A DNA stretch of 64,000 nucleotides from Escherichia phage OliverMaurmann_Bas86. Shown in pieces: positions 1,608 to 8,988 of the stretch (the stretch's first letter is position 1; the number at the start of each line of letters is the position of its first letter). Under the pieces are notes generated by a model. It ran no database searches, was not told where the DNA came from, and worked only from the letters and a program-made list of their open reading frames with translations. The stretch lies in sequence record PQ850622.1; one strand, given 5' to 3'. The position numbers were made by a program, and so were the translations under genes.

Positions 1608-3851
1608 ATGGCTAAGAAGAAATTTAGTGAAGATGTTTTGGATGAATTACGCGTTGACCTTCAACGTCGATTCAACTATGCTCAAGGTTATGTAGACTTA
1701 GCTGTAAAAGGCTATGCTCGTGAAGCTTGGGAATACTTCTACGGGAACCTTCCTGCTCCAGTTACTGCTGGTAGCTCTAGTTGGGTAGACCGTACGGTAT
1801 GGGAATCAGTGAATGGTACGCTCCAAGATATCATTAACGTGTTCTGTTCTGGTGACGAAGCGGTAACTTTCGTAGCCGATAACCAAGAAGATAGTGATGC
1901 TGCTGATGTAGCCACTAAACTTGTCAATCAAATTTTGTTACGTGATAATCCGGGATACAATATTATCTCTTCAGCGGCACAAGAGTGTCTGGTTACACGT
2001 AACTCTTTTATTAAATACTATTGGGATGAACAGACTTCTACTCAAACAGAAGAAGCAGAGGGTGTTCCTCCGGAAGCTTTGGCTGCATATGTCCAAGGTT
2101 TAGAAGCTGGTGGGCTTCAAGATTTAGAAATTTTTACCACTGACAATGAAGATGGTACAGTGGACGTTAAAGTAACTTACAAACAAACAGTAAAACGTGT
2201 TAAAGTAGAATATGTTCCTTCAGAGCAGATATTTGTTGATGAACATGCTACCTCTTTTGCAGATGCTCAGTATTTCTGTCATCGCACACGTAAATCTAAA
2301 GAAGATTTGGTTGCTATGGGCTTCCCTAAAGATGAAATCGAAGCTTTTAACGACTGGACTGACACAATGGACACCACTCAGTCTACTGTTGCATGGTCAC
2401 GTACTGACTGGAGACAGGACACTGATGCTGATATCGGTGTTGATACTGATGATATTGCAAGTATGGTATGGGTTTATGAACACTATATCCGTACTGGTGT
2501 ACTTGATAAGAATAAAGAATCAAAACTCTACCAAGTCATTCAAGCAGGTGAGCATATTCTCTCTTGTGAGGAAGTAACTAGTATTCCTTTTGTAACTTTC
2601 TGCCCTTATCCTATTCCGGGTTCATTCTACGGACAGTCGGTTTATGATATTACTAAAGATATTCAGGATTTACGTACCGCTTTGGTCCGTGGTTACATTG
2701 ATAACGTAAATAACGCTAACTATGGTCGATACAAGGCGCTTGTAGGCGCGTATGACCGTCGTTCTTTGCTAGACAACCGTCCGGGTGGTGTAGTAGAAAT
2801 GGAGCGTCAGGATGCGATTGATCTCTTCCCATACCACAATTTACCTCAAGGTATCGATGGCTTGCTGGGAATGTCTGATGAGTTGAAAGAAACTCGTACT
2901 GGTGTTACTAAACTCGGTATGGGTATTAACCCTGATGTGTTTAAGAATGACAACGCGTATGCAACCGTTGGGTTGATGATGAATGCTGCTCAGAACCGTC
3001 TCCGTATGGTCTGTCGTAACATTGCTCACAACGGTATGGTTGAATTGATGCGTGGTATTTATAATTTAGTCCGAGAAAATGGTGAAGTTCCTTTACAGGT
3101 ACAAACCCCTCGTGGTATGGTTCAGGTTCACCCTAAACAATTACCTGCTCGTCATAACTTAGAAGTAGTTGTAGCCATCTCTCCTAGCGAGAAGTCAGAA
3201 CGTGCACAGAAACTCATTAGCCTGAAGCAATTGATTGCTGCTGATGCTCAGTTAGCACCTCTGTTTACTCTGGAACAGGATCGTTATATGACTGCACAGA
3301 TCTTCGAGTTGATGGGAATTAAAGATACTCACAAATACTTGATGCCTCTGGAACAGTATCAACCTCCAGAACCTTCTCCGATGGAAATCCTCCAGCTTGA
3401 GATGACTAAAGCACAGGTTGAGAACGTACAGGCTTCTTCTCAGAAGATGATTGCTGATGCATTCGACCAGCGTGAACGCACTACGTTTGAACAGCAGAAA
3501 GCTGCGGACGAGTTTAGCTTACGTCAAGAAGAACTGCAATTTAAGCAAGAGAATGCTGCTGATCAGATGACTCTGGAGAATCGTAAAGAAGATAACAGTG
3601 CTACACTTGAACAAGCTAAGCATAAGTTGGCTTTACTCCAGCAACAGGTCCGTCAGTATGAATCTGTACTTAAAGAATTGCAGATGACTCTTAATCATCA
3701 GGTCGATGTTGAGAAAGTTGCAAATCAGGCTAAAATTCAAGATAAGACTTTGGAACTCCAAAAGAAAGAAGCAAATGAAACTAAGAAAGAACAGCAAAGT
3801 TCAATCAAAGATTCACGGATTCCTAACCGTCGTCTTGGTAGTAGAAAATAA
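1608..3851 (+). CDS. Portal protein (putative)
   Basis: 747 aa ORF directly after terL and before scaffold/capsid; C-terminal Q/E/K-rich coiled-coil tail. Assignment by gene order and size. Confidence 0.65.
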   Translation: MAKKKFSEDVLDELRVDLQRRFNYAQGYVDLAVKGYAREAWEYFYGNLPAPVTAGSSSWVDRTVWESVNGTLQDIINVFCSGDEAVTFVADNQEDSDAADVATKLVNQILLRDNPGYNIISSAAQECLVTRNSFIKYYWDEQTSTQTEEAEGVPPEALAAYVQGLEAGGLQDLEIFTTDNEDGTVDVKVTYKQTVKRVKVEYVPSEQIFVDEHATSFADAQYFCHRTRKSKEDLVAMGFPKDEIEAFNDWTDTMDTTQSTVAWSRTDWRQDTDADIGVDTDDIASMVWVYEHYIRTGVLDKNKESKLYQVIQAGEHILSCEEVTSIPFVTFCPYPIPGSFYGQSVYDITKDIQDLRTALVRGYIDNVNNANYGRYKALVGAYDRRSLLDNRPGGVVEMERQDAIDLFPYHNLPQGIDGLLGMSDELKETRTGVTKLGMGINPDVFKNDNAYATVGLMMNAAQNRLRMVCRNIAHNGMVELMRGIYNLVRENGEVPLQVQTPRGMVQVHPKQLPARHNLEVVVAISPSEKSERAQKLISLKQLIAADAQLAPLFTLEQDRYMTAQIFELMGIKDTHKYLMPLEQYQPPEPSPMEILQLEMTKAQVENVQASSQKMIADAFDQRERTTFEQQKAADEFSLRQEELQFKQENAADQMTLENRKEDNSATLEQAKHKLALLQQQVRQYESVLKELQMTLNHQVDVEKVANQAKIQDKTLELQKKEANETKKEQQSSIKDSRIPNRRLGSRK

Positions 3852-3860
3852 GGATACTGA

Positions 3861-4097
3861 ATGAATACAAGACAGCAATTCAATAAAGAGCACGCCGCCG
3901 CTTTGGCGGCTCTCAATCACAACGGCATTCTTGACGCAGCATTAGAGGCATTGAAAGAAACCCTCATGAAAGATATCGTACTAACCGAGGCTCATGAGAA
4001 TAAGAAACGCGAAGAGTGTTATCAAAAGTATAAAATGGTTGGTAGCTTAAAAGAGGTCATAAAAGCTGCTATCAATAATGCAGGAGATAATTCCTAA
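3861..4097 (+). CDS. Small hypothetical head-module protein
   Basis: 78 aa ORF with RBS, between portal and scaffold. Confidence 0.4.
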   Translation: MNTRQQFNKEHAAALAALNHNGILDAALEALKETLMKDIVLTEAHENKKREECYQKYKMVGSLKEVIKAAINNAGDNS

Positions 4098-5179
4098 TGG
4101 CAAATGATTATATTGACCCGAACGATTTTAAATCTTTCCTCCAACTAGACGACTTAAAAGGTTCCTTCAAAGAAGAGCTTAGTCAATTAGAATCAGAACG
4201 TGAACCAGAAGTGAACATTGATGATGAATTCCCAGAACAGTCTGAGACTTTTGATCTTGATGCTTCCGACCTTCTCGGTGATGACGATACGTTAGCGTTC
4301 GAAGATGAAGATGGTTGGGAAGATCGTGAAGAGGAAGGCGAAGAAGAAGAGGAAGAGTCTGAGTTCTCTGATGAAGAAGATGAAGAAGATGATTCCGGTG
4401 AAGCAGGTCACGATGAAGCTGCTAACAGTGATGAAGATGGCGAAGAAGGCGAAGTCTTTGACGTAGATTACGAAACTGTTATCACCCTTCCTGATGGTCG
4501 TGAGATGACTATTGAAGAGTTGTCTAATGGCTATCTGACTGGTGCAGAAATGTCCGAACGTGAGACTACTTTGCAGCGTCATGTTGAAGCTTTTGAAGAA
4601 CGTGTTTCTGGTTTGGGTGATGTATTAGAACTAGCTGCCCTAGAAGCAGACCGAGTAATTGAAGATTACAACGGTTTTGATTGGGACAAACTCGCACAAG
4701 AAGATCCTCAAGCTTATGTAGAAAACAAACGTTTCTTAGAAAAGTATACAGCTCGTCGCCAACAGCTTGAACAAGCTCAGCTTAAAATCAAGCAGGAAGC
4801 ACAAGCAAAAGAACAACAGCTCTTCCAAGCTAAATGTACCGAATGTGTAAGCGTACTTAAACGTGAGATTCCTAATTGGGATGACAACTTGTATCAGAAC
4901 CTGATGCAGTATGCAATCGACTTAGGTGCTACAGAAGAAGAAGTGCTGAAAGAGAACCGTCCGTCAATTTTCCTAGCTCTGCACAAAGCATACCAATTTG
5001 ATAAAGGTAAGCAGCAAGTGATGGCTAAGATTAAACGTCCCGGCTCTCCACGCAAGGTTGTGAAGTCCGATGCTTCTAAGTCTCGTTCTTCCAATACGCC
5101 AGACAACGCTAAGGTTGCCAAGGCATTCTCAGAGGGTCGCATTCGTCACGAAGACGCATTTAAGTATCTCGTAGATTAA
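4097..5179 (+). CDS. Scaffolding protein (putative)
   Basis: 360 aa, strongly acidic (long E/D runs), helical/coiled-coil C-terminal half, immediately upstream of major capsid gene. Confidence 0.6.
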   Translation: MANDYIDPNDFKSFLQLDDLKGSFKEELSQLESEREPEVNIDDEFPEQSETFDLDASDLLGDDDTLAFEDEDGWEDREEEGEEEEEESEFSDEEDEEDDSGEAGHDEAANSDEDGEEGEVFDVDYETVITLPDGREMTIEELSNGYLTGAEMSERETTLQRHVEAFEERVSGLGDVLELAALEADRVIEDYNGFDWDKLAQEDPQAYVENKRFLEKYTARRQQLEQAQLKIKQEAQAKEQQLFQAKCTECVSVLKREIPNWDDNLYQNLMQYAIDLGATEEEVLKENRPSIFLALHKAYQFDKGKQQVMAKIKRPGSPRKVVKSDASKSRSSNTPDNAKVAKAFSEGRIRHEDAFKYLVD

Positions 5180-5219: not shown

Positions 5220-6278
5220 ATGGCAAATCCAACTTTATTTGTATCGTACGACCAGAATGGTAAAAAACTTTCTTTTGCTAACTGGATTTCTGTCCTGTCT
5301 CCGCAAGACACTCCGTTTGTGTCTATGACTGGTAAAGAGTCTATTAACCAGACTATTTTCAGCTGGCAGACCGATGCTCTGGCGAGCGTAGATGCTAACA
5401 ACGCCCACGTCGAAGGCTCTCGTGCTGAAGACGGTGAAATGAAACCGACTGTAATCAAGTCCAACGTTACTCAGATTCTGCGTAAAGTTGTTCGTGTTTC
5501 TGATACTGCTAACACCACCGCTAACTACGGTCGTGGTCGTGAGCTGATGTATCAGCTGGAGAAGAAAGGTAAAGAGATTAAGCGTGACCTCGAGAAAATC
5601 TTGCTGTCCGGTCAGGCTCGTACCGACATTCTGGCAGACCAGTATCTGACTAACTCTGCAACTGATCCTGCTGTTGTAGGTCAGAACGATACTTCAGCTG
5701 CACGTAAGACTGGTGCTTTCCAGTTCCTGTGTGCACACAATGGTGTTGCTGGTGGTGTTGTTAAGAAAGAAGATGGTCCTGCTGACCCGGATACCGGTGC
5801 AGTAACTGTTAAAGTTGCACAGAATGCTTCTAACCCGACTTCTAACATCGGTTTTGATGAAGCTGACATCTTTGATATGACTCTGCAATTGTATACCGCT
5901 GGTTCTGAAGCAGACATCATCATGATTAACCCTGCTCACGCTAATATCTTTGCTAAGCTTCAGGAAAACTCTGTTGGTTCTCGTCAGCGTATCTTTGAGA
6001 ACACCAAACAGTTCATCTATGAAGTTAACAGCATCACTGACCCGCTGGGCCAGAGCTATAAAATCATCGTTAACCGTTGGATGCCTGCTGATGCAGTTTA
6101 CTTCTTCCGCAGCTCTGACTGGACTCAGATGGTTCTTCGTGCTCCGAAACGTACTGAACTGGCGAAAGATGGTTCTTACGAGAAATGGATGATCGAAATG
6201 GAAGTTGGTCTGCGTCACCGCAACCCGTATGCTTCCGGTGTACTGTTCACCGCTGCGGGAAAGGTGGAAGCGGCGTAA
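5220..6278 (+). CDS. Major capsid protein
   Basis: 352 aa ORF following scaffold; strong RBS (TAGGAGC); size and position typical of HK97-fold capsid protein. Confidence 0.8.
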   Translation: MANPTLFVSYDQNGKKLSFANWISVLSPQDTPFVSMTGKESINQTIFSWQTDALASVDANNAHVEGSRAEDGEMKPTVIKSNVTQILRKVVRVSDTANTTANYGRGRELMYQLEKKGKEIKRDLEKILLSGQARTDILADQYLTNSATDPAVVGQNDTSAARKTGAFQFLCAHNGVAGGVVKKEDGPADPDTGAVTVKVAQNASNPTSNIGFDEADIFDMTLQLYTAGSEADIIMINPAHANIFAKLQENSVGSRQRIFENTKQFIYEVNSITDPLGQSYKIIVNRWMPADAVYFFRSSDWTQMVLRAPKRTELAKDGSYEKWMIEMEVGLRHRNPYASGVLFTAAGKVEAA

Positions 6279-7642
6279 CAGTAGATTCCGTAACTGTTAG
6301 TCCTTCGTCGGTTGCAAGCCTTCCGACGGGGGCTACTCAGCAGTTTACAGCTACAGCAGAAATGAGCGACGGCTCCACAAGCACAACCGGATTTAATTGG
6401 TCCGTTGAAGGCGGTGGGGCTGTTTCTGTTTCTGGGCTATATACTGCACCGAGTGCGTCGCAAGAAACCCCAGCAACTATTACGGCAACTAAGGGCAGTA
6501 AAACAGGTACTGCTACAGTTCAATCTGTTTTTGAACCTGCTACTATCGAAGCTAAAGCCAACATCACAGGCAAGGTTGGTGGAAGCACTACAGCCTTTAC
6601 TACAATGTTCACATCAACTAATTCTTCGGCAGAAGATTATTCTTTTGTTGTGTCTCCAACATCAGCAGGAACTGTCAGTGCAGCAGGAGTTTTAACTTTG
6701 AGTAACAATGCAACAGGTACAGTTACTGTTAAAGCTACCCATAAAACTCAATCAGGAGTTGAAGCCACTGTAACCTTTACAGGTGTTGTTGCCAAAGCGG
6801 CTATTACTGGAAAAACAGTCACGGGTAAAATTGGGGGCGATACTGTTGCGTTTGCTGATCTATTTACAGCAACAAACTCTTCCGCAGCCAATTACAACTT
6901 CGTAGCTAACCCTTCTGGGATGACTACCTCTATCAACACTAACACTGGACTTGTTACTTTATCGGCTAATGCTACAGGTGATGTAACAATTACAGCTACC
7001 CACAAAACTCAAACCTCAGTTACTGCTACAGGGACCATCAGTGGTGTAGTCCCTAAAGCCACTATCACAGGTAAATCTCTTACCGGTAAAGTTGGTGGTG
7101 ATGTGATTCCTTTCGCGGACATGTTCACCAGTAACAAACCAGCATCAGAATTCAACTACGTGTTGACTCCGACTGGTGATGTAGGTGAAATTAACACTAC
7201 TACAGGTGCACTGACTCTCTTAGATGCTCCTACAGATGAGCTTATTAGTGTTAAAGCTACCCATAAAACTCAAACTTCTGTAACGGCAACCGCTACAATC
7301 ACAGCTACTCCGAAACTTACGGGCCTCGTTGCTTCTAGTGTTTCTAATACTGTGGTCGTAGGTGCTCCAGAGAACCCTCTTGCTACAGACTCCATCACAA
7401 TCACTGACTCTACTCAACCGGGTGTAGTTCGTTTTGATGGTGTACCTCAGGGTTCAGTAGTTGGTGCTCTGTCTTATGACGCAGAAGGTACTGATGTGGG
7501 TTTGATGGAAGTTGATTTAACAGGTCAGGTGTTGACAATCACTTTATCAGCTCCGATTACCAGTGAAGATACTAAAATCTCAATCAGAACTAACCCAGCC
7601 TCTACAATATTCCGTACTTATGTTGTCAAGTCTGGTGCTTAA
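5220..7642 (+). CDS. Capsid protein with C-terminal Ig-like (Big_2-type) extension, predicted product of -1 programmed ribosomal frameshift at GGGAAAG (6257-6263)
   Basis: Slippery heptamer G_GGA_AAG lies in the capsid frame 5 codons before its stop; the -1 frame is open to 7642 and encodes Ig-like repeats (VTVDSVTVSPSSV...TGATQQFTATAEMSDG...). Confidence 0.5.
6550..7320 (+). repeat. Three tandem coding repeats (~80-87 codons each) inside the Ig-like extension
   Basis: Protein repeats each ending ...ATHKTQ(S/T)(G/S)V(E/T)AT... and beginning (A/P)KA.ITGK...; in-frame, not CRISPR-like. Confidence 0.6.
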
Positions 7643-7647
7643 AACTA

Positions 7648-7675
7648 AGGCTGCCTTCGGGTGGCCTTTTCTCAT
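7648..7675 (+). terminator. Rho-independent terminator (UUCG tetraloop hairpin + T-run)
   Basis: AGGCTGCC-TTCG-GGTGGCCT followed by TTTTCTCATTTT, just after the Ig-extension stop. Confidence 0.55.
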
Positions 7676-7742
7676 TTTAAGACCCTTATAAGGAGATATG
7701 TAATGTATTCTCTTTGTCTATACACAACTAGGAGGACAAGTT

Positions 7743-8255
7743 ATGGCAATGCCTGACTTAAAGGGTGTTTTTACTTATAACCAAGACACTGGACACCTCT
7801 TTTGGTCTATGAGTAATGTTTATAATAAGAAGAAAGGACAGAGAGCTGGTTGCATTAATAACAAAGGCTACAGAGTTCTGACCTTTAAAAATAAATCTTA
7901 TTTAGAGCACAGAATCATTGCAGAGTTATTCTTACCTAAAGTGGAAGGAAAGAATCAGATTAATCATAAGAATGGGATTAAGGATGACAACCGCCTAGAA
8001 AACTTAGAATGGTGCACAGGTAGTGAGAACTGCTTACATGCTATTAGTATAGGTCTTAGAGAAGTGAAAAGTTTAGAGGAAAATCCAAACGCTAAACTTT
8101 CTAAAGAGGATGCTCTATTCTGTCTTCAGAACTATAAGCCTAGAAGCCGTCAGTTCGGAGCTAGAGCATTGGGTCGAAGATTTGGAGTATCTAAAAGTAC
8201 AATCAGCCTTCTTGTGAAAGGCGAAAACTGGAAGGAGTTATTATATGATGCCTGA
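7743..8255 (+). CDS. HNH homing endonuclease (HNH_3-type with N-terminal Y..DTG.L.W motif)
   Basis: 170 aa; motifs GYRVLTF...HRIIAELF...INHKNGIKDDNRLENLEW; preceded ~40 nt upstream by TAATGTATT. Confidence 0.8.
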   Translation: MAMPDLKGVFTYNQDTGHLFWSMSNVYNKKKGQRAGCINNKGYRVLTFKNKSYLEHRIIAELFLPKVEGKNQINHKNGIKDDNRLENLEWCTGSENCLHAISIGLREVKSLEENPNAKLSKEDALFCLQNYKPRSRQFGARALGRRFGVSKSTISLLVKGENWKELLYDA

Positions 8256-8988
8256 TGTTCAATATCCCATCAATACCTACGGATGGCTCAAGAAAGCTGT
8301 GTCCCTCTGGGCTGACAGGGATGATGATGAATTTGTTAATCAGATTCCAAACTTTATTAACTTTGCAGAGAAAGAAATCTATCGTAACTTACGAATTCCT
8401 CCTCTGGAAAAAGAAGTATATTTAGATATTAAAGATGGTGTGGCTTTTATTCCACCAGACTACTTAGAAGCTCAGTGGATGATGAGAGCAAGTAATGGAC
8501 ATATGTTCCGAGTAACTTCTCCAGAAGAGTTAGATTGGCTGAAAAGAAATAACTCAGTAAACCCAACTAACTGGAATCAGGGAGAAGTGAGTTTTACTAG
8601 GTTGGGAAGTCGGTTCCTGTTCTACCCAGCCATCAATGCTGATACTCCGGTCTACCCTGATGATGGAAGCCCTCTTATTCCAGCGGAGAATTCGGTAATT
8701 CTTAGCTATTATGCAGACCCTCCGGAGTTTCATGAGGATTCTGATACAAGTGCAATTTTAACAATAGCTCCAGAGCTTCTTCTATATTTCACATTACGTC
8801 ATGCAAGCTTATTTGTCCAAGATGATAATGGGGTTCAGAAGTGGTCTGCTTTAGGGAAAGCTATTCTAGATGAGGTAGTTGAGCAGAGTAAGAAAGCTGA
8901 ATACTCAGGCTCTCCTCTAGTTATTCCTAGAACTATTGACCGTCTTCACAGCTCTCGTGAGTTGTATGGAATCAAACACTACAGTTAA
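8245..8988 (+). CDS. Virion structural protein (function unassigned)
   Basis: 247 aa ORF with GAAGGAG RBS, between HNH insert and tail fiber genes. Confidence 0.45.
   Translation: MMPDVQYPINTYGWLKKAVSLWADRDDDEFVNQIPNFINFAEKEIYRNLRIPPLEKEVYLDIKDGVAFIPPDYLEAQWMMRASNGHMFRVTSPEELDWLKRNNSVNPTNWNQGEVSFTRLGSRFLFYPAINADTPVYPDDGSPLIPAENSVILSYYADPPEFHEDSDTSAILTIAPELLLYFTLRHASLFVQDDNGVQKWSALGKAILDEVVEQSKKAEYSGSPLVIPRTIDRLHSSRELYGIKHYS

Follow-up and report, generated by a model that had tools for sequence, protein, structure and literature searches.

A capsid frameshift was already described for the phages phiEco32, SU10, Paul, YF01 and Privateer, and the finding presented here is correct but not new. 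The first four belong to the Kuravirus group (Gordonclarkvirinae), and their capsid proteins are 91-99% identical at the amino acid level to that of Escherichia phage OliverMaurmann_Bas86 (Bas86), which was analyzed in this work. The slip site was pointed out in the SU10 genome paper (PMC4281155). The frameshift of YF01 was described in the YF01 paper and entered in GenBank as a join CDS, while the join CDS of Paul carries the note 'Frameshift at GGGAAAG; Frameshift in PhiEco32 major capsid protein product as well'. Detection of the frameshift products of phiEco32 and SU10 is cited in the Privateer paper. The same heptamer was found at the same codons (...FTAAGK) in all four phages and in Bas86, at a distance of 9-12 nt to the stop, with a Big_2 domain opening the extension and a terminator following it. 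The extensions differ in length (459 codons in Bas86 and Bas89, 178 in phiEco32, 545 in Paul and 543 in YF01), and their modules differ too.

The Proteus phage Privateer (Grimontviridae) encodes an SU10-type capsid protein of 58% identity with GGGAAAG at the C-terminus, as in Bas86. Its -1 extension comprises 168 codons with the Ig domains I-set and Big_2, compared to 459 codons in Bas86. The heptamer of Privateer abuts the stop codon (0 nt), whereas 12 nt separate the two in Bas86, and a stem-loop is predicted to start at the classical spacing, 6 nt 3' of the heptamer, in contrast to 27 nt in Bas86. Two capsid bands on SDS-PAGE were recorded in the Privateer paper, and a minor capsid protein was detected by MS of whole virions. 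The capsid gene is given as a join CDS in the GenBank record of this phage.

In T7 and T3, frameshifting by -1 close to the 3' end of the major capsid gene 10A/10B results in a longer minor capsid protein, as proposed for Bas86. The T7 heptamer differs from that of Bas86, being of the G_GUU_UUC type, and the T7 extension is far shorter, with 398 aa in 10B versus 345 aa in 10A. The T3 extension is Ig-like, and shifting in T7 is affected by a long-range 3' element at a distance of more than 200 nt (PMC5009743; PMC9965538), hence distal elements have a precedent. Ig-like domains added by frameshifting are common on phage structural proteins (PMC5009743). A heptamer identical to that of Bas86, G_GGA_AAG, is used by the lambda G/G-T tail assembly chaperone, where it works in E. 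coli without strong downstream structure at an efficiency of ~3.5% (PMC9965538). There, the site belongs to a tail chaperone gene and the product is an assembly factor, whereas in Bas86 it belongs to the capsid gene and a virion surface protein is proposed.

The window, i.e. the whole stretch of 64,000 nt that was analyzed, belongs to a Kuravirus-group coliphage of the phiEco32/SU10 type. The capsid locus contained the following features:

5220..6278, plus strand, major capsid protein gene in the zero frame (ORF list and translation, Pfam SU10_MCP, PDB 7z45)
6251..6275, plus strand, possible hairpin CGCUGC...GCGGCG with the heptamer in its loop (from the sequence, partly recovered by RNAalifold)
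6257..6263, plus strand, slippery heptamer G_GGA_AAG, of the form X_XXY_YYZ in the zero frame of the capsid gene
6276..6278, plus strand, TAA at which the unshifted capsid protein ends, 12 nt 3' of the heptamer
6263..7642, plus strand, -1 frame extension ORF with its stop at 7640-7642, base 6263 being read twice
7647..7678, plus strand, terminator-like hairpin with a T-run, directly 3' of the extension stop

The capsid gene product of 352 aa and 38.7 kDa is an HK97-fold capsid protein of the SU10/phiEco32 type. It matched Pfam SU10_MCP (PF17236) at residues 12-343 with 7.2e-79 and 265.8 bits, exceeding the curated cutoff of 24.1 bits over the full length, and the SU10 capsid protein PDB 7z45 with E=6e-221. 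A terminator was sought between the capsid stop and the extension, and no convincing one was found there. The capsid-plus-extension transcription unit is closed by the hairpin and T-run at 7647..7678, and the Paul, Privateer and SU10 records have a terminator annotated at the equivalent place, after the extension. A further difference from the four Kuravirus-group phages is an HNH endonuclease ORF that is inserted downstream in the Bas86 genome.

The capsid codons at the slip site are GCG GGA AAG GTG GAA GCG GCG TAA, with GGA at 6258-60 and AAG at 6261-63. An X_XXY_YYZ heptamer thus stands in frame with the upstream ORF (zero frame), as needed for a -1 frameshift. The heptamer was in frame and invariant in 28/28 Kuravirus-type sequences, comprising 18 phage and IMG/VR loci and 10 further metagenome contigs; the latter were located via an anchor that excluded the heptamer, and it was kept in 10/10 of them. 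Third codon positions vary in the flanks, whereas GGA AAG and the G before it do not, synonymous positions included. Gly-Lys can be encoded in 8 ways, yet G-GGA-AAG was the only encoding seen in the 28 sequences. The enrichment of GGGAAAG in the window was not significant (10 copies versus 7.5 expected), and the heptamer is meaningful only via its frame, position and conservation. When 78 ORFs of at least 100 aa were screened, an in-frame slippery heptamer followed by a -1 extension of at least 50 codons was found in the capsid gene and one other ORF, 908-1276. The latter is a shadow ORF within the longer ORF 1-1542, hence the capsid gene is the only real gene with this combination.

The heptamer G_GGA_AAG is given as highly shift-prone in E. 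coli (PMC5009743). No stimulatory structure was found at the usual 5-9 nt 3' of the heptamer, where it is not obligatory in bacteria, and no Shine-Dalgarno-like element was found 5' of it (~10 nt being usual). A weak GGAA/UUCC hairpin 2 nt 3' of the heptamer was rejected as a classical stimulator, being lineage-specific and not conserved according to RNAalifold. An equivalent of the heptamer-in-loop hairpin at 6251..6275 was proposed by the SU10 authors (PMC4281155). This hairpin is impossible while the ribosome occupies the heptamer.

A change of frame by slippage of the RNA polymerase at GGGAAAG was also considered and is hardly conceivable at this site. The runs consist of just 3 G and 3 A, whereas productive transcriptional slippage takes place at homopolymer runs of ~6-9 or more. 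Moreover, an exact X_XXY_YYZ was found in the zero frame, and such frame dependence makes sense for tRNA re-pairing only. In some genes of bacteria and phages, two products do arise in a similar manner by transcriptional slippage (PMC5009743).

The extension was divided into the following parts:

6281..6520, plus strand, first Ig-like domain, Big_2 by Pfam (extension residues 7-86), with beta strands in the AF2 model
6542..7312, plus strand, three tandem Ig-like repeats of ~85 aa each (extension residues ~94-177, 180-264 and 268-350)
7322..7639, plus strand, C-terminal beta-sandwich domain of the AF2 model (extension residues ~354-459)

The first-pass annotation, made from the DNA letters, had placed G_GGA_AAG at 6257-6263 in the capsid frame before the stop at 6276-6278, had claimed ~460 further open codons encoding Ig-like domains in the -1 frame, and had given the junction as ...FTAAGK/GGSGVTVDS... 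The position of the heptamer was borne out by reading the codons and the junction had the sequence claimed. The -1 frame was open from 6158 to 7642, with 459 codons after the slip, and its Ig-like nature was supported by a Big_2 match in Pfam and an all-beta AF2 model. The predicted transframe product (5220..6263 joined to 6263..7639) comprises 807 aa and 84.1 kDa. Trypsin would cleave it at the junction between AAGK and GGSG, a junction peptide being e.g. TAAGKGGSGVTVD.

The extension matched PHROG 13745 'Ig domain containing protein' (1.4e-84). Its Big_2 domain (PF02368) scored 39.7 bits versus a gathering cutoff of 22.8 and began 7 residues after the slip. Matches of the tandem repeats to Big_2 were weak (6e-4 and 5e-3; 20.1 and 17.2 bits, below the cutoff), and no Pfam family matched the C-terminal domain (residues ~354-459). 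The AF2 prediction from a 36-sequence alignment gave all-beta tandem beta-sandwiches with a pLDDT of 92.9; it replaced a single-sequence run, which was uninformative at a pLDDT of 41.8. Foldseek matches of the model included cadherin, DSCAM, LigA Big domains and SU10 nozzle Ig domains, and its top BFVD match was the capsid protein of phage Paul that is annotated as a frameshift product of 894 aa. A PDB sequence search with the extension as the query gave no match. According to the model, the extension is built of a Big_2 domain and four further Ig-like beta-sandwich modules, five in total.

A -1 ORF of 178-545 codons was kept in 27/28 sequences. Further, the variation within 6279-6361, a segment that directly follows the capsid stop and contains no start codon, was counted by -1-frame codon position and amounted to 6/27, 5/28 and 17/28. 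Third positions varied in 17/28 cases versus 11/55 at positions 1 and 2 (p=4e-4), a pattern indicating that this start-less segment evolves as -1-frame coding sequence. Upstream of the heptamer, 0/10, 0/10 and 6/10 capsid-frame positions varied, i.e. third positions only, which points to a constraint by the capsid frame only.

These data bear on the proposal that the extension is a remnant, either decaying or dispensable, that is expressed rarely if at all, and that the heptamer is kept merely for the conserved Gly-Lys of the capsid protein. In SU10, a 1-nt insertion ends the extension after 11 codons and the cryo-EM head is without extra density, hence the long form is dispensable in at least one relative. 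The variable length of the extension and the ordinary frequency of GGGAAAG in the window fit the same proposal. It is nevertheless very unlikely, since 27/28 sequences keep a long -1 frame with the third-position substitution pattern, the domains fold with high predicted confidence, and one of the 8 possible encodings of Gly-Lys is invariant amid varying third positions. A minor capsid protein of the virion is also reported in the Privateer paper, alongside the cited detection in phiEco32 and SU10.

Two codons could be regarded as starts of a separate Ig-like gene:

6185..6187, plus strand, -1-frame ATG within the capsid gene that is not conserved as a start
6362..6364, plus strand, next ATG of the extension frame and the first one downstream, 33 residues into Big_2

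If the Ig-like ORF were an independent gene starting at either ATG, a free protein of ~43-49 kDa would be produced and bound to the capsid non-covalently. Such free Ig-like decoration proteins occur in other phages, e.g. the N4 capsid entry 9e99_J among the fold matches. Besides the presence of both ATGs, this reading is favored by the separate 'Ig domain containing protein' CDS annotated in Bas89, SU10, EP335, SGF2, SR02, Ptacy1479, SU7, Bas94 and 172-1, and by the SU10 structure paper, in which gp10 was handled as a separate protein. However, neither ATG is accompanied by a Shine-Dalgarno sequence. Upstream of ATG 6185 only GGT could be taken for one, in agreement with the first-pass annotation, which had seen no convincing RBS. 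The relatives have GTG or ATG at this position, and in 12/18 relatives examined it is cut off by a TGA stop at -63. No Shine-Dalgarno sequence was found at ATG 6362 either, AAA or AAG takes its place in the phiEco32 clade, and a start at this codon would delete a third of Big_2.

Moreover, the segment 6279-6361 is constrained as -1-frame coding sequence despite having no start. The annotated Ig starts disagree with each other, being at +27 nt in SU7 and Bas94 and at +105 nt in other records, as is typical when gene callers guess. The split annotation in GenBank looks like a gene-caller default and not like evidence, and the separate 'Ig domain protein' that many records begin at ATG 6362 is probably a gene-caller artefact. 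A free decoration protein would be expected to have its own start and ribosome-binding site, conserved in relatives, and these were not found. Instead, the -1 ORF was open over the slip site and had no conserved initiation signal, as expected for a frameshift. An independent gene is therefore improbable, and in-frame capsid-Ig fusions in relatives argue against it as well.

Such a fusion is encoded by the Salmonella phage 7-11, whose second capsid paralogue contains SU10_MCP and Big_2 in one frame (Pfam). In the metagenomic P0034, SU10_MCP is fused in frame to a repeat and a C-terminal domain of the Bas86 type (65% identity, E=9e-29), and the fusion adjoins a short capsid paralogue. A homologous C-terminal extension domain was found in P0034 and P0022. 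BLASTP of the extension against the long capsid protein of 7-11 was not significant (E=0.07), hence the link to the in-frame fusions rests on Pfam and P0034. In 7-11, Cronobacter phage GAP52 and P0034/L030, the same capsid family carries C-terminal Ig-like modules, those of P0034 being of the Bas86 type. The long and short forms of these phages come from two tandem genes with no slippery site, whereas one gene and recoding are proposed for Bas86.

Taken together, the locus is very probably a programmed -1 ribosomal frameshift of Kuravirus-group phages that fuses the capsid protein to Ig-like domains. The first-pass annotation had proposed both the shift and the fusion, without recognizing that this frameshift is known for the genus. 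Its proposal is supported by the invariant heptamer, the lack of a conserved start and the -1-frame third-position variation, by Big_2 beginning 7 residues after the slip, by in-frame fusions elsewhere and by the annotations and papers on congeners.

One further element was recognized next to the slip site:

6290..6348, plus strand, conserved RNA stem-loop of 21 bp within the first part of the extension ORF

A hairpin CGTCGG...CCGACG had been noticed earlier and placed at ~6300-6322, ~35 nt downstream of the heptamer. The hairpin is real and conserved, but its arms lie at 6306-6311 (CGTCGG) and 6323-6328 (CCGACG), 42 nt from the heptamer, and they form the tip of the longer stem-loop, the base of which is separated from the heptamer by 27 nt and from the TAA, likewise upstream of it, by 11 nt. 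The stem-loop had an MFE of -31.7 kcal/mol (z=-2.8) and was recovered in the RNAalifold consensus, with 98.9% of the cells paired across 25 distinct sequences. At the pair 6310:6324, G-C, U-A and A-U all occur among the relatives. Third codon positions varied in 4/13 paired versus 22/26 unpaired columns (p=0.003), so synonymous variation is suppressed in the arms. The covariation is suggestive only, as it beats a shuffle control but a -1 slide of the pairing scores similarly and the sequences are closely related. An Rfam search of 6150-6450 gave no match.

By estimate, the start of the stem-loop approximately coincides with the point at which the mRNA leaves the ribosome during termination at the capsid TAA. 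At 27 nt it is too distant for a classical stimulator, which justifies the earlier caution that the hairpin lay further away than usual. Tentatively, it may be considered as a functional RNA element hitherto undescribed, although we regard this as doubtful. It could modulate the capsid frameshift across a long spacer, by analogy with the unexplained effect that acts over a long range in T7 gene 10. Alternatively, it could be a gate that only -1-frame ribosomes have to open, or a processing or stability site that determines how much long relative to short capsid protein is made. The stem-loop is possibly the only new item at the locus.

Slippage in Bas86, its efficiency, incorporation into the virion and the function of the Ig-like domains were inferred or taken from the literature on relatives, and the following sequence of events is proposed. 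Most ribosomes would translate the capsid gene to the TAA (6276), resulting in the 352-aa, 38.7-kDa protein. A minority would slip at G_GGA_AAG (6257-6263) by tandem -1 slippage of tRNA-Gly and tRNA-Lys, when the P-site tRNA-Gly re-pairs from GGA to GGG and the A-site tRNA-Lys from AAG to AAA. The slipped ribosomes would read 459 codons in the -1 frame, yielding a product of 807 aa and 84 kDa. An efficiency of a few percent is expected, as at the identical lambda G-T heptamer and in line with the YF01 paper. In the long form, capsid residues 1-348 would be followed by a short Gly/Ser linker and then by five Ig-like beta-sandwich domains in tandem. This form would assemble into the head together with the short one, as a minor capsid species carrying the Ig-like string on the outer surface, where the likely role of the domains would be weak binding of cell-surface or environmental carbohydrate.

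Most records of the group, including that of the nearest relative Bas89, split this locus into a 'major head protein' and a truncated 'Ig domain containing protein', whereas the correct annotation is a joined 807-aa transframe capsid protein. The locus would represent one more instance of recoding that delivers Ig-like domains to the phage surface. Among the relatives, this one capsid family displays three solutions to the same problem, namely the GGGAAAG frameshift, a probable A_AAG-plus-hairpin frameshift and duplicated in-frame capsid paralogues.

The region was affiliated with a Kuravirus-group podophage (phiEco32/SU10-like, Gordonclarkvirinae). Positions 5220-7642 matched Escherichia phage KarlSchell_Bas89 over the full length at 93.9% nucleotide identity, and over 90 additional records of E. 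coli phages were matched as well. The capsid protein matched the solved SU10 capsid protein 7z45 with E=6e-221, and the neighboring genes were assigned as follows:

1608-3851, SU10-type portal (ORF list and profile match)
4097-5179, scaffold-sized ORF (ORF list)
5220-6278, SU10-type major capsid protein (ORF list and profile match)
8245-8988, SU10-type adaptor (ORF list and profile match)

An HNH endonuclease ORF (7743-8255, + strand, 170 aa; Pfam HNH_3 1.3e-12, PHROG 59 1.7e-36) was located between the terminator of the extension and the adaptor gene, overlapping the adaptor start at 8245. In Bas87, EK010, E20-1 and NC-B its flanks were matched as two pieces and the ORF was missing, while PAS59 was the only phage with a similar sequence at this position (74% identity). 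The ORF has the appearance of a recently inserted homing endonuclease.

The proposed slip site was found where the first-pass annotation had placed it: GGGAAAG occupied positions 6257-6263 and was read in the zero frame of the capsid gene as G_GGA_AAG, the capsid codons at the 3' end being GCG GGA AAG GTG GAA GCG GCG TAA with the stop at 6276-6278. The long open -1 frame was also confirmed, as it extended from 6158 to 7642, including 459 codons past the slip. A transframe protein of 807 aa (84.1 kDa) with the junction ...FTAAGK-GGSGVTVDS... was predicted alongside an unshifted capsid protein of 352 aa (38.7 kDa). The heptamer was not statistically unusual by count (10 copies in the window versus 7.5 expected). 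In a screen of the 78 ORFs with 100 aa or more, an in-frame slippery heptamer followed by a -1 extension of at least 50 codons was recorded, besides the capsid gene, for 908-1276 only. The latter was a shadow ORF within the longer ORF 1-1542, which leaves the capsid gene as the sole real gene with such an arrangement. No convincing terminator was found from the capsid stop to the extension, and a terminator-like hairpin with a T-run followed the extension stop at 7647-7678.

The possibility that the extension was translated from its own start was considered. The ATG at 6185, doubted as a start from the outset, was not conserved as one: in 12 of the 18 relatives examined, the -1 frame was closed before the heptamer by a TGA at -63, and some others had GTG in place of the ATG. 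The next ATG in the -1 frame, at 6362, had no Shine-Dalgarno sequence, lay 33 residues into a Big_2 domain (bacterial Ig-like domain, group 2) and was replaced by AAA or AAG in the phiEco32 clade. Within the start-less segment 6279-6361, variable columns at -1-frame codon positions 1, 2 and 3 amounted to 6/27, 5/28 and 17/28, respectively (third versus first and second positions, Fisher p=4e-4); upstream of the heptamer, variation was confined to capsid-frame third positions. The segment evolves as a -1-frame coding sequence despite having no start. In the GenBank records of most relatives (Bas89, SU10 and loci L022, L023-25 and L027-29), the extension is annotated as an 'Ig domain containing protein' of its own, and its start varies from record to record (+27 or +105 nt from the heptamer).

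The conservation was assessed with 17 further Kuravirus-type loci (GenBank phages and IMG/VR) and 10 metagenome contigs, the latter located via a 26-nt capsid-gene anchor that did not include the heptamer. All 28 sequences contained an unchanged GGGAAAG in the capsid frame, 9-12 nt upstream of the stop, with variable third codon positions nearby. The -1 frame was open for 178-545 codons in 27 of them. The one exception was SU10, whose extension was interrupted by a 1-nt insertion 11 codons in, with the Ig sequence going on in another frame, as likewise noted by the YF01 authors (PMC9965538). The insertion was located at about 8415-8425 of KM044272, GACACTGTCTACTG versus GACAGTGT-GACTG of all other Kuravirus sequences. 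It could be a real mutation of the stock or a sequencing error, and would explain the absent Ig density in the SU10 cryo-EM head.

The extension itself began with a Big_2 domain above the curated Pfam cutoff, its first residue being 7 after the slip; the following two repeats gave Big_2 matches below the threshold, and PHROGs returned 'Ig domain containing protein' (1.4e-84). AlphaFold yielded a pLDDT of 41.8 from the single sequence and 92.9 with a 36-sequence alignment; the modeled extension consists of about five beta-sandwich domains in a row. Foldseek matched the model to proteins with several Ig domains (cadherins, DSCAM, LigA, the SU10 nozzle Ig domains and an N4 capsid chain). The best hit to a viral model was the 894-aa annotated frameshift capsid protein of phage Paul, and a 585-aa capsid protein from Salmonella phage 7-11 was hit as well.

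The predicted downstream hairpin was present, but not at ~6300-6322: its arms were at 6306-6311 and 6323-6328, 42 nt after the heptamer. These 6 bp made up the apical part of a 21-bp stem-loop spanning 6290-6348 (MFE -31.7 kcal/mol, z=-2.8), with equivalent folds in phiEco32 and YF01. RNAalifold recovered it, and pairing reached 98.9% across 25 distinct sequences. Three pairings (G-C, U-A and A-U) were seen at 6310:6324, where the Ser codon in the 5' arm changed synonymously together with a Pro/Leu/Gln/Glu change in the 3' arm, and both-sided changes also occurred at 6311:6323 and 6292:6346. The sequences compared were closely related, few independent events lay behind the covariation, and sliding the pairing by -1 gave a similar covariation score. 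Third codon positions of 6279-6396 were variable in 4/13 paired versus 22/26 unpaired columns (p=0.003). Selection at the RNA level was suggested by these patterns rather than proven.

The stem base was separated from the heptamer by 27 nt (24 nt in the phiEco32 clade) and from the TAA by a constant 11 nt. The distance to the heptamer exceeds the classical 5-9 nt of a stimulator; the first-pass annotation had likewise remarked that the hairpin was farther away than usual. By our estimate, the stem base is approximately where the mRNA leaves the ribosome during termination at the capsid stop. No Rfam family matched the stem-loop. A different hairpin, containing the heptamer, was proposed by the SU10 authors (PMC4281155). 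Its equivalent at 6251-6275 was ruled out while the ribosome occupies the heptamer. In lambda G-T, the efficiency of the heptamer is a few percent. Since that functional heptamer is the identical G_GGA_AAG (PMC9965538), a stimulator is not strictly required.

Other arrangements were observed in relatives. In Privateer (3948-3995), GGGAAAG directly abutted the TAA stop and a stem-loop (GCCAGCCCAA...UUGAGGUUGGU) was predicted to begin 6 nt downstream of the heptamer, whereas the conserved Kuravirus structure began 24-27 nt downstream. The SU10-type capsid genes of three IMG/VR Aeromonas-phage-like contigs (L009, at 4407-4440, L010 and L011) had no X_XXY_YYZ heptamer. These genes ended with ...CUG AAG GUA AAG GCG UAA, with a hairpin GCGCCC-CUAC-GGGCGU 6 nt after AAG, and were followed by a start-less -1 ORF of about 168 codons with two Big_2 domains (7.9e-35). 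Here, the A_AAG tetranucleotide and the classically spaced hairpin probably make up a -1 frameshift signal, which appears to be unannotated.

More distant relatives of the same capsid family reached the long form without recoding. In 7-11, GAP52, Aeromonas phage APT65 and loci L014 and L030, 2-4 SU10-type capsid paralogues were arranged in tandem, and each array included at least one paralogue extended in frame at its C-terminus (585, 363, 429, 442 and 501 aa). In 7-11, the second of two tandem genes combined SU10_MCP (the Pfam family of this capsid protein) and Big_2 in a single frame. The 501-aa metagenomic protein P0034 of L030 joined a SU10-type capsid protein in frame with the repeat unit of the window extension (65% identity, 99 aa, E=9e-29), also carried the C-terminal domain of that extension, and adjoined a short 315-aa paralogue. 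Tandem paralogues are an alternative to recoding for producing short and long capsid forms. From these in-frame capsid-Ig fusions it follows that the modules of the extension are used in covalent linkage with the SU10-type capsid protein.

The same frameshift had been recorded previously. The join CDS of Paul in GenBank is annotated 'Frameshift at GGGAAAG; Frameshift in PhiEco32 major capsid protein product as well (PMID: 18294652)', and the YF01 record likewise contains a join CDS. Two isoforms, the heptamer and the Ig-like addition were described for YF01 (PMC9965538), and the slip site and fusion with the Ig-like CDS10 'as in phiEco32' for SU10 (PMC4281155). According to Atkins et al., G_GGA_AAG is highly shift-prone in E. 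coli, and frameshift-delivered Ig-like domains occur on phage structural proteins, the T3 capsid protein included (PMC5009743). The stem-loop at 6290-6348 was the only part to go beyond the literature consulted.

Based on all the data, a capsid-Ig fusion made by -1 frameshifting, as originally interpreted, is very well supported, and it is a genus-wide, already known feature. Its practical worth lies in annotation, as the locus is still split in many records, the nearest relative included; those records should probably be re-annotated with a joined ribosomal-slippage CDS.
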